Positions 13,180-16,960 of a stretch of 45,825 nucleotides of DNA are shown here, one piece after another. How positions within the stretch are numbered: the first letter of the stretch is position 1; the number at the start of each line of letters is the position of its first letter. The stretch is from Escherichia coli (GTDB lineage Bacteria > Pseudomonadota > Gammaproteobacteria > Enterobacterales > Enterobacteriaceae): assembly GCF_003334765.1 (NCBI RefSeq), contig NZ_QOWT01000032.1; one strand, written 5' to 3'. Below the pieces are notes generated by a model. It searched no databases, had not been told where the DNA came from, and saw only the letters and a program-made list of their open reading frames with translations. The position numbers were made by a program, and so were the translations under genes.

Positions 13180-15156
13180 TTATGGCATTACGCCATCAGT
13201 CAGATAGTTGCCATGCTTAACCGCGTGACGCCGCCACATCAGGAGAATTGCAGTCGAGATTGCAGCCCCCACCAATGCCGCGCCAAACCAGCCAATTGCC
13301 GCCATAACACCGCCCGCGCCATTATCATGAAGTAAAAAGAGCGAGAAAATGCCGGCACCGGGTGTCGAAAGGCCGATATTCATCGCACCGACAATAGCGC
13401 CCGTTACCATAGAGCCCAGCACAAACGAACCAATAACCCGCAGCGGATCTTCAATCGCCATCGGGATCGCCCCTTCGGTAATACCTGCCAGCCCTAACAG
13501 CCAGGTGGATTTCCCGGTCTCAATTTCAAACTCTTTAAACAGGCGCGGTGCGAGCATCGTGGAAGCGGTTACGGTAAATGCCGAAACCATTTTGACGGAG
13601 GCGAAAATGGCATACGGGCCGTAAACGCCGTTCGCCATTGCGCCCAGGCAGAATGCATAAGCGGCTTTATTCACTGGCCCTCCAAGGTCAAAGGAACACA
13701 TAAAACCGAGAATGGCACCCAGCAACAGCGCGTTACTTCCTGACAGACCGTTCAGCCAGGCGGTAAGCGAGTTATTGATCCAGGCGACAGGTTCCCCCAC
13801 CACAAACAGCATCAGACTGCCCGCTCCCAACGTACCGAGCACCGGGTAGAGATAAAAAGTCAGGAATCCATTGAATTTACTGCTAAGACGCAAGTGATTT
13901 TTCACCCAGCGCATCAAGTAACCGGCTATCAATCCGCCAACGACCGCGCCGAGAAACCCGGAGCCGATCATGTTGGCGGCAAGTCCAGCCGCAAAGCCTG
14001 GCGCTAACGCCGGTTTATCTGCCAGAGAATAGGCGGTATAGGCCGCGAGCACCGGTACCATCAAAATTCCGAGCAGCCCGCCGCCCAGCTTGCGGTACAT
14101 CCACAGCCAGGAGTTTTCTTCATTAAACAGATCTTGTAGCCCGAAGATTTGCGACAGTAATACCGCGACCGCCAGCACCGTGCCCCCCGCGACAATCAAC
14201 GGTACGGCAAAAGAGATTCCGCTCAACAGTGCCTGTTTCAGCTCCGTTTTGACACTTTTCACCGGTTGCGTATCTTGCTGTACGGTACGCGTCTCATCGC
14301 TACGCTTGAGGGTAAGCGCTTGTTGGATCAACGCTTCTGCATGGCGAATCGGCTCGGCAACAGGCACTGAAAGCGCGGGAATGCCATTAAAACGCTCACT
14401 CTCCTTGATGGCGACTTCAGCCGCAAAAATACAGGCGGTTGCACTATTGAGTTGATCCGCCGTTAAACGCCCTTCAATGCCGTTAGCGCCTTGTTTTTCA
14501 ACGTAAACATTTACGCCGAGTTTGCGTCCGGCTTTTTCCAGATATTCCGCAGCCATATAGGTGTGAGCAATACCCGCCGGACAGGCCGTTACGCAGACGA
14601 TAGTTGGCGCGTTGGAAAAAGAGGCAGAAGGTTGCGTGCCTCCCTTGTCATCCAGCGCCGAGAGCAACTCATCAGGCGTCGTCGCCGACTGTATACGCGC
14701 CCGAATCTCATCATCCGCAAGGCGCGTGGTCAGCGCTGTCAGCAGTTGCATATGCGTAGTACCCGCTTCATTGGGGGGAATCGCCAGCAGCACCACTAAA
14801 TCAACTGCTTCCGGGCCATCAACGCCTTCCCACTGAAGCGGCTCGCTGAGTGTGGCGACCGCAAACGCCGCTTCTTTTACCGCAGCAGTTTTGCCATGCG
14901 GCACAGCCAACCCTTCACCTAAGGCGGTCGGGCCAAGGCTTTCACGGCGATACACTTCTTCCAGAAATTGCTCAGTACTGGAAATTTTCCCCAGAGCAGC
15001 AAGACGTTGAGTCAACGCGTGGATGGCCTCTTCACGGCTGGTAAAGCGCGCATTCAGACACAACGCATCGCGGTGGGTCAGAGTCGTCAGATTCATCATG
15101 ATCCTCACTTGATCGTTTTTATAGTCGCGCCAGTGTGCCCGATAAAACAATACCAT
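13180..15156 (-). CDS. mngA: PTS 2-O-alpha-mannosyl-D-glycerate-specific EIIABC component MngA (true start possibly at 15096)
   Basis: 658-aa longest ORF with EIIA, EIIB ([17 protein letters not shown]) and EIIC domains; the ATG at 15094-15096 has a GAGGA Shine-Dalgarno, the ORF start at 15156 has none. Confidence 0.9.
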
Positions 15157-15264
15157 TATGTGATCAATTTCACTTGATTGAAATTATTTGTATTGTATTT
15201 GTATTATTTACAGGATGAATTTATCGGGCATAATGGTTAAATTCGTATTAATGAGATACTAAAA
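15097..15264. promoter_or_regulatory. mngR-mngA divergent control region with repeated motifs (probable MngR operators)
   Basis: gcccgataaa (15137-15146) / tttatcgggc (15220-15229) inverted 10-mers; ccattatg / cataatgg; aatttca-N6-tgaaatt palindrome; tgtatt x3. Confidence 0.55.
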
Positions 15265-15987
15265 ATGGGACACAAGCCCTTATACCGGCAGATTGCCGAT
15301 CGCATTCGTGAACAAATTGCGCGTGGCGAGCTTAAACCTGGCGATGCGTTACCCACTGAATCAGCGCTACAAACAGAGTTTGGCGTCAGCCGGGTTACGG
15401 TGCGTCAGGCTTTGCGCCAGCTAGTCGAGCAGCAGATCCTCGAAAGCATTCAGGGCAGCGGGACTTACGTCAAAGAAGAGCGGGTCAATTACGATATTTT
15501 TCAGTTAACCAGTTTTGATGAAAAACTGTCGGACCGTCACGTCGATACACACAGTGAAGTTCTGATATTCGAAGTGATTCCGGCTGACGATTTTCTTCAG
15601 CAACAGCTACAAATCACCCCGCAGGATCGTGTGTGGCATGTGAAGCGCGTGCGCTATCGCAAGCAAAAGCCAATGGCGCTGGAAGAAACCTGGATGCCGC
15701 TTGCGTTGTTCCCGGATCTCACCTGGCAGGTCATGGAAAATTCGAAATATCACTTTATCGAAGAAGTGAAGAAAATGGTTATCGATCGTAGCGAACAGGA
15801 AATCATTCCTCTGATGCCAACCGAAGAGATGAGCCGTCTGCTTAATATCAGCCAGACAAAGCCGATTCTTGAAAAAGTATCGCGTGGATATTTAGTTGAT
15901 GGTCGGGTGTTTGAATATAGCCGCAACGCTTTTAATACCGATGACTATAAATTTACCCTGATAGCGCAGCGAAAATCATCGCGATAA
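15265..15987 (+). CDS. mngR: GntR/HutC-family transcriptional repressor MngR (FarR)
   Basis: 240-aa ORF with N-terminal GntR winged HTH and UTRA-like C-terminal domain. Confidence 0.93.
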   Translation: MGHKPLYRQIADRIREQIARGELKPGDALPTESALQTEFGVSRVTVRQALRQLVEQQILESIQGSGTYVKEERVNYDIFQLTSFDEKLSDRHVDTHSEVLIFEVIPADDFLQQQLQITPQDRVWHVKRVRYRKQKPMALEETWMPLALFPDLTWQVMENSKYHFIEEVKKMVIDRSEQEIIPLMPTEEMSRLLNISQTKPILEKVSRGYLVDGRVFEYSRNAFNTDDYKFTLIAQRKSSR

Positions 15988-15991
15988 GCAC

Positions 15992-16015
15992 AAAAAAGGC
16001 CATCATACGATGGCC
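15992..16015 (-). terminator. Rho-independent terminator of the sucABCD transcript and SdhX
   Basis: Hairpin ggccatc-atac-gatggcc (15998-16015) followed on the minus strand by TTTTTT. Confidence 0.8.
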
Positions 16016-16090
16016 AACCATGTCGAAACCGACAGCCCTTCGCCATTCCTGTAGAGGGAAGCGGCGAGGGCTATTTCTTATTACAGATAT
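15992..16090 (-). ncRNA. sdhX: 3'UTR-derived sRNA SdhX (RybD) following sucD
   Basis: About 100-nt 3'UTR between sucD stop and the terminator; identity from established knowledge of this locus, sequence not independently verified. Confidence 0.55.
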
Positions 16091-16960
16091 TTATTTCAGA
16101 ACAGTTTTCAGTGCTTCACCGATATCCGCCAGGCTGCGAACGGTTTTCACGCCTGCGGCTTCCAGAGCAGCGAATTTCTCATCCGCAGTCCCTTTCCCAC
16201 CGGCAATGATGGCACCCGCGTGGCCCATACGTTTGCCTTTCGGCGCAGTCACACCAGCGATGTAACCCACAACTGGCTTGGTAACGTGCTCTTTGATGTA
16301 CGCAGCTGCTTCTTCTTCAGCGCTACCGCCGATCTCACCGATCATCACGATCGCTTCGGTCTGCGGATCTTTTTCGAACATTTCGAGAATGTCGATAAAG
16401 TTAGAGCCCGGGATCGGGTCACCGCCGATACCGACACAGGTCGACTGACCGAAACCGTAATCCGTGGTCTGTTTAACCGCTTCATAGGTCAGTGTACCGG
16501 AACGGGAAACGATACCCACTTTACCCGGTTTGTGAATGTGACCAGGCTGGATACCGATTTTGCATTCACCCGGAGTGATAACGCCTGGGCAGTTCGGGCC
16601 GATCATACGAACGCCTGCTTCATCCAGCTTCACTTTCACGGTCAGCATATCCAGCGTCGGGATGCCTTCAGTGATGGTGATAATCAGTTTGATGCCTGCG
16701 TCGATGGCTTCCAGAATGGAGTCTTTGCAGAACGGTGCTGGTACGTAGATAACAGAAGCGGTAGCGCCAGTGGCAGCAACGGCTTCACGCACGGTGTTGA
16801 ACACCGGCAGGCCGAGGTGGGTGGTGCCGCCTTTACCTGGGGTTACGCCGCCAACCATTTTAGTGCCGTATGCAATGGCCTGTTCTGAGTGGAAAGTCCC
16901 CTGGCTACCGGTAAAGCCCTGGCAGATAACCTTGGTGTTTTTATCGATTAAAATGGACAT
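16091..16960 (-). CDS. sucD: Succinyl-CoA synthetase alpha subunit
   Basis: 289-aa [31 protein letters not shown]... Confidence 0.97.

Follow-up and report, generated by a model that had tools for sequence, protein, structure and literature searches.

The locus formed by mngR (farR) and mngA in Escherichia coli raises two connected questions: from which codon mngA is translated, and what function is carried by the DNA that separates it from its divergent neighbour. The repressor gene mngR, a member of the GntR/HutC family, occupies positions 15265–15987 of the plus strand of the window (that is, the whole analysed stretch of 45,825 nt), while the longest open reading frame of mngA extends on the minus strand over positions 13180–15156 and encodes 658 aa. 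The divergent arrangement of the two genes was found in 78 of 80 loci. With mngA read as a shorter frame (13180–15096, minus strand; 638 aa, MNLTTLTH...), the spacer between the genes is 168 nt long.

Translation Start of mngA

The preliminary description of this DNA proposed that mngA starts 60 nt inside the longest reading frame, and the comparison with related loci bore this out. Homology detected by tblastn starts exactly at the methionine of MNLTT in all 80 MngA relatives, an ATG occupies the position homologous to 15096 in 79 of these relatives, which range from Enterobacteriaceae as far as Vibrio and Aeromonas, and this ATG is preceded by a Shine-Dalgarno-like (SD-like) motif in 77; in 35 of the 80 relatives no other in-frame start codon occurs before the upstream stop. 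The Shine-Dalgarno sequence GAGGA (15106–15102, minus strand) lies, as had been described, 5 nt ahead of the ATG at 15096–15094, within the block GTGAGGATC, conserved at 80–99% among 36 Enterobacteriaceae sequences. The calculated energy of the anti-SD duplex is -7.6 kcal/mol ahead of 15096 versus 0.0 kcal/mol ahead of the first codon of the 658-codon frame (ATG 15156–15154, minus strand), in agreement with the earlier remark that the latter is devoid of a Shine-Dalgarno sequence. The EIIA domain, too, follows the downstream ATG as claimed: the Pfam model PTS_EIIA_2 aligns, from its position 5, with residue 29 of the long form, i.e., residue 9 of the short form, a boundary that suits the 638-aa protein and leaves the 20-residue extension outside the domain. 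Finally, the distance between the CRP-like box described below and the ATG amounts to 68–73 or 85–92 nt in different relatives, with every residue modulo 3 being represented, which supports the short start. Altogether, the ATG at 15096–15094 is strongly supported by the sequence comparison as the translation start of mngA.

That K-12-type E. coli nevertheless uses the 658-aa start, alone or besides another one, seems hardly credible. The ATG of this start is kept in 3018 of the 3868 mngA-carrying E. coli genomes (approximately 78%), a fact counting against the short start, it is used by the curated MG1655 record and many database entries, and the mngA promoter predicted further upstream by Shimada 2014 (PMC3946193; TTAATA-19-GATAAA) would give a transcript including it. 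However, besides having no Shine-Dalgarno sequence, this codon opens an extension that is present in no homolog and lies outside the EIIA domain, and it is gone from at least 648 E. coli genomes (replaced by AAT in 536 and by ATA in 112, the Eco889 and WCHEC4533 types being examples) as well as from the outgroup Escherichia sp. L005; in both representative records taken for the AAT and ATA haplotypes mngA is annotated as intact. Moreover, the codon is situated in a conserved regulatory block, where it overlaps a conserved KGTATY half-site, and precedes all the conserved -10 candidates.

A second competitor is much closer to the supported start. The frame contains an in-frame ATGATG (15099–15094, minus strand), the first ATG of which (15099–15097) directly precedes the conserved one and had been omitted from the preliminary description. 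Translation from it, yielding 639 aa (MMNLTT...), could profit from the same Shine-Dalgarno sequence, and a start codon (ATG, GTG or TTG) is found at this -1 position in 26 of 80 relatives. Yet the spacing from GAGGA is just 2 nt, PGAP picks 15096, and in the other 54 relatives the -1 codon is a non-start one versus the next ATG being kept in 79 of 80, so we consider the extra ATG unlikely to be the start. Our literature search retrieved no N-terminal, start-codon, proteomic or ribosome-profiling evidence for mngA.

The short start is already known rather than new, since the RefSeq/PGAP record gives mngA as 638 aa, mapping to position 15096 of the window. The curated MG1655 record retains the 658-aa MngA, and this form is widespread in databases. 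The case resembles the over-extension of genes to the longest frame in early annotations, the upstream ATG being devoid of a Shine-Dalgarno sequence, unconserved and located before the first domain, and PGAP being already on the shorter form; it differs in that the curated K-12 reference record is still uncorrected.

MngR Operator and Putative MngR Sites in the Intergenic Region

The repeated motifs around the upstream ATG had been proposed to be operators of MngR. This interpretation held for the TGTATT repeats, of which a pair is conserved and matches the published site, and failed for the inverted pairs and the palindrome (see the next section), which are unconserved and bear no resemblance to it. 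FarR/MngR binds direct repeats TGTATTAWTT (Quail, Dempsey and Guest 1994, as cited in PMC4494728). The operator found here (15185–15205, plus strand) consists of two copies of TATTTGTATT 11 bp apart and corresponds to this published repeat: TGTATTATTT at 15200–15209 matches TGTATTAWTT at 10 of 10 positions, and the second copy lies 11 bp upstream. The motif TGTATT occurs at 15189, 15194 and 15200, the first and the third forming the 11-bp pair. In approximately 57 of 61 regions such a pair is placed at -37 to -39 and -26 to -28 from the centre of the CRP-like box; among the TGTATT copies, only these two are conserved, while the middle one (15194) is lineage-specific, being missing in E. coli Eco889 and most species. 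As the spacer analysed is the very locus, with the same sequence, for which the repeat was published, the TGTATT repeats as such add nothing new. What the comparison adds to the repeat as cited in PMC4494728 is, first, that only the 11-bp-phased pair is conserved, and, second, two further sites, one on the mngA side and one near the start of mngR.

The former is an inverted MngR-like half-site TGGTATTGTT (consensus ATGTATTGTT; 15146–15155, minus strand), which in the predicted mngA promoter would occupy approximately positions -30 to -21 and has a column conservation of about 90% or more. A KGTATY half-site begins at +12 from the centre of the CRP-like box in 35 regions, and Vibrionaceae possess a pair of such half-sites at +15 and +26. 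The latter, CGTATTAATG (15244–15253, plus strand), is a fourth TGTATT-like site, overlooked previously; it matches TGTATTAWTT at 8 of 10 positions just downstream of the predicted mngR transcription start, and its GTATTA core is conserved at 70–90%. Judging from their sequences, both 15146–15155 and 15244–15253 may be bound by MngR. Like the direct-repeat sites of other GntR-family regulators (TGGTATT of NagQ and TGGTATAW of NanR; PMC4494728), the MngR-like half-sites have the form T(G)GTATT and recur at about one helical turn; in contrast to NagQ and NanR, MngR belongs to the HutC subfamily, and here the arrays face both ways, flanking a putative activator site.

Inverted Repeats and the Palindrome

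All the other motifs listed previously, two inverted pairs and a palindrome, are indeed present along with the three TGTATT copies, and jointly they exceed chance expectation. The 10-mers GCCCGATAAA (15137–15146) and TTTATCGGGC (15220–15229) are parts of a perfect 11-nt inverted repeat, with the left arm TGCCCGATAAA (15136–15146) adjoining the predicted mngA -10 hexamer on its upstream side and the right arm TTTATCGGGCA (15220–15230) in the promoter spacer, close before the mngR -10 hexamer CATAAT; complementarity extends over 17 nt at 88%. The 8-mer pair proved to be a perfect 9-mer pair (ACCATTATG at 15152–15160 and CATAATGGT at 15229–15237), and the palindrome AATTTCA-N6-TGAAATT spans 15166–15185 (AATTTCA 15166–15172, TGAAATT 15179–15185). 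In 2000 dinucleotide shuffles of positions 15090–15270, a perfect inverted repeat of at least 11 nt was rare (P = 0.016), and the observed numbers of 8-mer inverted pairs (6 versus 0.8 expected, P = 0.0065) and of same-strand TGTATT copies (3 versus 0.24 expected, P = 0.001) were likewise unusual.

This statistical excess in K-12, together with the position between divergent genes, is what speaks for regarding every one of these inverted repeats as an MngR operator, as the preliminary description did. Such a reading is nonetheless very improbable, as the repeats resemble neither TGTATTAWTT nor the HutC palindrome GTMTAKAC, are incomplete or missing in other lineages of E. coli, the changes being non-compensatory, and are unconserved in other genera whose orthologous MngR is 70–84% identical. 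Neither inverted pair nor the palindrome is kept as a repeat even inside E. coli. The 11-nt repeat is perfect in the K-12-type lineage only; in Eco889 and WCHEC4533 single arms are altered at non-matching positions, and in the right arm TTTATCGGGCA conservation is low except for GGCATAAT. The palindrome is disrupted in Eco889 and missing from other genera, its left half overlapping the CRP-like box and its right half being unconserved. The HutC-type GT-N4-AC core (GTMTAKAC) was not found in these repeats; FarR is named as an exception to this consensus (PMC4494728). Those repeat portions that are conserved coincide with the mngR -10 hexamer CATAAT, the CRP-like box, the inverted MngR-like half-site and the sequence beside the mngA -10-like hexamer. 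Apparently, the inverted repeats of K-12 arise mostly because similar elements, namely -10 regions and opposed half-sites, face each other across the spacer.

As another candidate function of the repeats, a hairpin in a long leader RNA of mngA, controlling translation or stability, was considered and rejected as scarcely tenable. For the RNA of the minus strand from 15240 to 15090 a folding energy of -29.6 kcal/mol (z-score -2.05) was calculated, and 36 relatives gave z-scores averaging -1.2. The K-12 value of about -2 was not upheld, though, in other E. coli lineages (-0.5 in Eco889 and -1.2 in WCHEC4533), values below -2 were obtained for only 7 of the 36 sequences, the changes in the arms are not compensatory, and a transcription start near 15125, as predicted below, would leave the arms untranscribed. 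An Rfam scan of positions 14500–16500 at E-values up to 1 gave no match. We attribute the mild folding bias to the dyad symmetry of the DNA sites.

CRP-Like Box and Predicted Promoters

Between the MngR operator pair and the inverted half-site lies the sequence TGTGATCAATTTCACT (15159–15174, plus strand; AGTGAAATTGATCACA on the mngA strand), which deviates from the CRP consensus TGTGA-N6-TCACA by one mismatch. This box is not mentioned in the preliminary description. By itself a one-mismatch match is not significant in the window, since 1.48 are expected per 45.8 kb; among 73 distinct orthologous intergenic regions, 30 contain a CRP-like box with at most one mismatch, versus 0.8% of shuffled sequences. 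The literature found by us, including the main text and supplements of a CRP SELEX paper (PMC3105977), contains no report of CRP control of mngA.

The unreported status of such control is one of the points compatible with another view of the block 15149–15174, namely that it is a single extended operator of MngR or another regulator instead of a CRP site. Within Enterobacteriaceae the spacer of the box, containing the palindrome TGATCA, is highly conserved too, and the block continues straight into the TGTATT-like half-site. Outside this family the picture is different: Vibrio, Aliivibrio, Psychromonas and Aeromonas keep the CRP half-sites with a varying spacer (e.g., TGTGATAGTCATCACA and GGTGATCTAAATCACA), and in Vibrionaceae, Psychromonas and Aeromonas the TGTATT-like sites stand apart from the box. 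Since, in addition, the distance from the box to the -10-like hexamer is that of a canonical class II promoter, we regard an extended operator as possible but rather unlikely, and predict from the sequence that CRP binds at 15159–15174.

In class II CRP-dependent promoters, such as galP1 or melA, the CRP site is centred at -41.5. In 56 of 59 regions a hexamer nAnnnT follows the CRP-like box by 20–21 nt, and therefore the box would be centred at -41.5 of the predicted mngA start, this start being taken as the position 7 nt past the -10-like hexamer. In the window this hexamer is CACACT (15132–15137, minus strand), with the relatives' consensus TGnCACAAT and a predicted transcription start near 15125 (approximately 766015 on the plus strand of MG1655, NC_000913.3). 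The TGTGA-N6-TCACA-like box and its location ahead of a sugar-PTS operon are features in common with class II promoters. Dissimilar are the repressor half-site between the box and the -10 and the weakness of the K-12 hexamer, which is devoid of the extended -10 TG found in relatives; unlike at the known class II promoters, CRP binding, CRP dependence and the start itself are here predicted from sequence. A class II CRP-dependent mngA promoter thus fits the spacing. CATAAT (15160–15155) or TATAAA (15123–15118) may alternatively act as the mngA -10; the conclusion on the start codon is independent of this choice, because the starts that these hexamers would direct are also located downstream of the A at 15156.

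For mngR, the promoter scan yielded the candidate TTTACA-16-CATAAT (15207–15234, plus strand; score 10/12), the hexamers of which are each conserved at about 80–99% in Enterobacteriaceae; the transcription start predicted for mngR is near 15241 (approximately 765899 on the minus strand of NC_000913.3). The alternative promoter-like sequence TTGAAA-18-TATTAT (15178–15207, plus strand), also detected by the scan, contains the TGTATT repeats in its spacer and was given for mngR by Shimada 2014 (PMC3946193); it is E. coli-specific, its TTGAAA hexamer being unconserved outside this species. No starts for mngA or mngR were found in the supplements of the Cappable-seq (PMC4782308), SMRT-Cappable-seq (PMC6131387) and Kim 2012 (PMC3415461) studies.

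Proposed Organization of the Control Region

Taken together with the conservation profile built from 36 distinct sequences, these data are, with high probability, best explained jointly by a start of mngA at ATG 15096 with its GAGGA and by a spacer composed of the MngR operator, CRP-like box, opposed half-site and -10, whereby the 60-nt (20-codon) extension of the longest frame would be non-coding promoter DNA. In such a layout, translation of the 638-aa protein (MNLTT...) from ATG 15096–15094 would depend on GAGGA at 15106–15102. The MngR operator pair (15185–15205) would abut the -35 of the conserved mngR promoter TTTACA-16-CATAAT; towards mngA it would be followed by the CRP-like box (15159–15174), the opposed half-site (15146–15155) and the -10-like hexamer (15137–15132), at distances that suit a class II CRP-dependent promoter from which transcription would begin near 15125, past the long-frame ATG. 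With MngR attached to either flank of the CRP box, RNA polymerase could then be blocked at the mngA as well as the mngR promoter, and the long-frame ATG, an alteration of the half-site peculiar to one lineage (consensus AAATGTATT, K-12 AATGGTATT), would remain untranscribed.

The further-reaching statement that we deal with a hitherto undescribed class II CRP-dependent mngA promoter, the box of which is bracketed by opposed arrays of MngR half-sites, and with an overlong 658-aa model, is in our estimation evenly poised between true and false; the same reading holds the bracketed layout to be conserved over the range that extends from Enterobacteriaceae as far as Vibrionaceae and Aeromonas.

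As a whole, the finding is ordinary and largely known, and its value is chiefly for annotation. In the curated K-12 record MngA is still longer by 20 N-terminal residues, which the comparative evidence rejects, and harmonised MngA records would keep this error out of constructs and of databases used in proteomics. For the mngR–mngA region, the comparison yields a map with testable coordinates of a small, well-defined regulatory switch, rather than a new kind of biology. If the bracketed layout is true, the 658-aa MngA model of the K-12/UniProt type starts inside a control region and needs shortening, and a single repressor, acting from the two sides, would gate both an activator-dependent promoter and the divergent promoter of its own gene.

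Genomic context and distribution of the locus

The locus comprises the sucCD, mngR, mngA and mngB genes of E. coli, with mngR (farR; GntR/HutC family) at 15265-15987 (+) and the longest mngA ORF (658 aa) at 13180-15156 (-); the mngR-mngA region of K-12 strains is identical to that of the window. When one genome was scanned per species, 80 loci of MngA relatives (59-96% identity) emerged from Enterobacterales, Vibrionaceae, Aeromonas and Psychromonas, and a divergent mngR lies upstream of mngA in 78 of them, which makes the spacers comparable. One of these loci, L012 (CACSKA010000002.1), is titled Chryseobacterium sp. 18061 and carries enterobacterial-type mngR-mngA (76% and 71% amino acid identity to E. 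coli), the assembly being probably mislabelled or mixed.

Within E. coli the region (window 14950-15400) is accessory, as matches were present in only 3868 of 5426 complete genomes; one match was plasmid-borne. The match in strain I3 (NZ_CP195969.1, 758597-758889) consists of two pieces with 69% query coverage, pointing to a deletion or some other rearrangement within the spacer or close to it. Directly after sucD, the MG1655 annotation places the sRNA sdhX (765050-765150; window about 15990-16090, minus strand); this known sRNA was undetected by Rfam 15, which returned zero families for 14500-16500 at E-value ≤1.

Translation start of mngA

The 658-aa ORF begins at the ATG at 15156-15154, and the preliminary description proposed a start 60 nt downstream. 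RefSeq/PGAP records, of both K-12 and divergent E. coli, give a 638-aa MngA whose start corresponds to the same 15096, thus the short start is not new. The curated MG1655 record (NC_000913.3) retains the 658-aa ORF, and proteins of either length occur commonly in public collections. An in-frame ATGATG occupies 15099-15094, preceded by GAGGA (15106-15102) at spacings of 5 nt (ATG at 15096) and 2 nt (ATG at 15099); the predicted anti-Shine-Dalgarno (SD) duplex amounts to 0.0 kcal/mol at the long-form ATG versus -7.6 kcal/mol at 15096, in line with the contrast originally noticed. The Pfam domain PTS_EIIA_2 aligns, from model position 5, starting at long-form residue 29, so that the N-terminal extension falls outside the domain.

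Homology starts with the M of MNLTT in all 80 relatives, with an ATG at this position in 79 and an SD-like motif in 77. The sole relative lacking this ATG, Enterobacter chuandaensis (L007 2501), has ATT immediately preceded by ATGATG, and its start appears to be shifted by one or two codons. No in-frame start codon occurs between the upstream stop and the conserved ATG in 35/80 relatives, and codon -1 (homologous to 15099-15097) is a non-start codon in 54/80. The spacing between the conserved upstream block and the mngA ATG (68-73 and 85-92 nt) takes all residues modulo 3, which is not as expected for coding sequence. An exact copy of the 40 nt surrounding the upstream ATG occurs in 3018 E. 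coli genomes; the codon is replaced by AAT in 536 and by ATA in 112, with mngA annotated intact in the two records representing these haplotypes, and is likewise ATA in an Escherichia sp. outgroup. Our literature search found no N-terminal or start-codon evidence for mngA. Taken together, the annotation and comparative data strongly support 15096 as the translation start, which we regard as highly likely.

Conserved blocks of the spacer and the MngR operator

Conserved blocks were read in the mngA direction from 36 distinct Enterobacteriaceae spacer sequences. Block 1 (15207-15234), ATTATG-16-TGTAAA, is TTTACA-16-CATAAT on the mngR strand and was also found by the promoter scan. It is followed by block 2, AATACA-N5-AATACA, i.e., two TGTATT 11 bp apart (15189 and 15200), and by block 3, the CRP-like box aGTGAAAnTGATCACA (15174-15159). 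Block 4, taaATGTATTg (K-12 taATGGTATTg; 15155-15146), includes the long-form ATG, while block 5, TGnCACAAT (K-12 GGgCACACT; 15137-15132), lies 21 nt past the box, and block 6, GTGAGGATC, surrounds the mngA SD.

The SD block GTGAGGATC (15100-15108, minus strand), found also in loci L006-L038, is 80-99% conserved, beyond the needs of an SD alone. A transcriptomics study (PMC5694010) reports mngA as repressed by CsrA, and the A-R-GGA-U context could represent a candidate CsrA site overlapping the SD.

The repeats first noticed in the spacer were all present: three TGTATT (15189, 15194 and 15200), the palindrome AATTTCA-N6-TGAAATT (15166-15185), an inverted 10-mer, actually a perfect 11-mer (15136-15146/15220-15230), and an inverted 8-mer, actually a perfect 9-mer (15152-15160/15229-15237). 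In 2000 dinucleotide shuffles of 15090-15270, P was 0.016 for an inverted repeat of at least 11 nt, 0.0065 for the number of 8-mer inverted pairs and 0.001 for three TGTATT on the same strand, thus the repeats are real and above chance. Their reading as MngR operators holds for the TGTATT repeats only, which are the published FarR/MngR operator, given as direct repeats TGTATTAWTT (Quail et al., 1994, as cited in PMC4494728); 15200-15209 matches it at 10/10 positions. Conservation is confined to the two phased copies; the third TGTATT, in the middle, exists because K-12-type E. coli have AATAC between them, where AATTA or AATTT stands in other sequences, strain Eco889 among them.

TGTATT-like half-sites flank the CRP-like box on both sides. 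Counted from the box centre, the two half-sites in the mngR direction begin 26-28 and 37-39 nt upstream; in the mngA direction Vibrionaceae have two, at +15 and +26, and Enterobacterales a single half-site at +12, its first base being the G of the K-12 long-form ATG. We lean towards MngR binding at this inverted half-site between the box and the mngA -10. A different layout was observed in Rahnella and Enterobacterales AwEntero (L055, L062, L080), with 4-5 tandem or overlapping AATACA just upstream of the SD, a lone copy far upstream and GGATCACA between them; the array of operators seems to have been relocated beside the ribosome-binding site.

Inverted repeats considered as additional operators or a leader hairpin

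The inverted 11-mer, the 9-mer and the palindrome were rejected as extra operators, being lineage-limited and overlapping other elements. The 11-mer arms, situated immediately upstream of -10-like hexamers (TTTATCGGG-CATAAT for mngR, TTTATCGGG-CACACT for mngA), are perfect in the K-12-type lineage only; their variants in Eco889 (GCTCGATAAA/TTTATCAGGC) and in strain WCHEC4533 (GCACGATAAA) show that the changes are non-compensatory. One 9-mer arm is the mngR -10, and the other is the junction of the CRP box and half-site, lost in Eco889. Of the palindrome, the left half lies within the CRP-like box, and the right half is unconserved even in Eco889. On thermodynamic grounds the repeats could form an RNA hairpin in K-12 (z = -2.05); this hairpin is not kept in other sequences (z -0.5 in Eco889; mean -1.2 over 36 sequences, below -2 in 7 of them) and would moreover be situated upstream of the predicted mngA transcription start. 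The best explanation of the inverted repeats is that similar elements face each other across the control region of two divergent genes, with the matches lengthened by chance in a single lineage.

CRP-like box and predicted mngA promoter

Block 3 differs from the CRP consensus TGTGA-N6-TCACA by one mismatch; a single such match is non-significant in 45.8 kb (1.48 expected). A box with at most one mismatch occurs in 30 of 73 distinct orthologous spacers versus 0.8% of shuffles, and distant taxa retain the half-sites around a 6-nt spacer that differs (e.g., Aliivibrio TGTGATAGTCATCACA, Psychromonas GGTGATCTAAATCACA, Aeromonas TATGATACCACTCACA). An nAnnnT hexamer follows 20-21 nt past the box in 56/59 regions. 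The box centre, 15166.5, would be at -41.5, in class II geometry, if transcription starts 7 nt past the hexamer, near 15125. The promoter predicted for mngA by Shimada (2014; PMC3946193) lies further upstream (TTAATA-19-GATAAA), and both of its hexamers show little conservation. The literature searched, a CRP SELEX study included, contained no account of mngA being under CRP control; the site may already be listed in EcoCyc or RegulonDB. A CRP class II promoter for mngA is, in our estimation, the probable arrangement.

Measured from the predicted mngR start (about 15241), the box centre also lies ~74.5 nt upstream, near the class I position -72.5, and, judging by spacing only, a single CRP dimer might act at both promoters of the divergent pair. 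In five Enterobacteriaceae loci (L008, L012, L015, L028, L081) the leader bears an insertion of ~18-20 nt downstream of the -10-like hexamer and ahead of the SD. It contains a short inverted repeat rich in GC with a T run after it (e.g., L028 aacaacctgaagcggttgtttt, L012 ggccgactggccgttttt), resembling a 5' UTR hairpin of the terminator or attenuator type.

Proposed regulation of the divergent promoters

We propose that MngR binds the phased repeats adjoining the mngR -35, a step based on the literature, and would also occupy the inverted half-site that separates the CRP box from the mngA -10, with CGTATTAATG at 15244-15253 as a possible further site. Together these sites would repress both divergent promoters; upon MngR release, CRP-cAMP at -41.5 would activate mngAB, with translation, on strong support, from 15096. 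The added value is modest, namely that the start has yet to be corrected in the curated K-12 reference, and the conserved layout, a CRP box between MngR sites, is directly testable.
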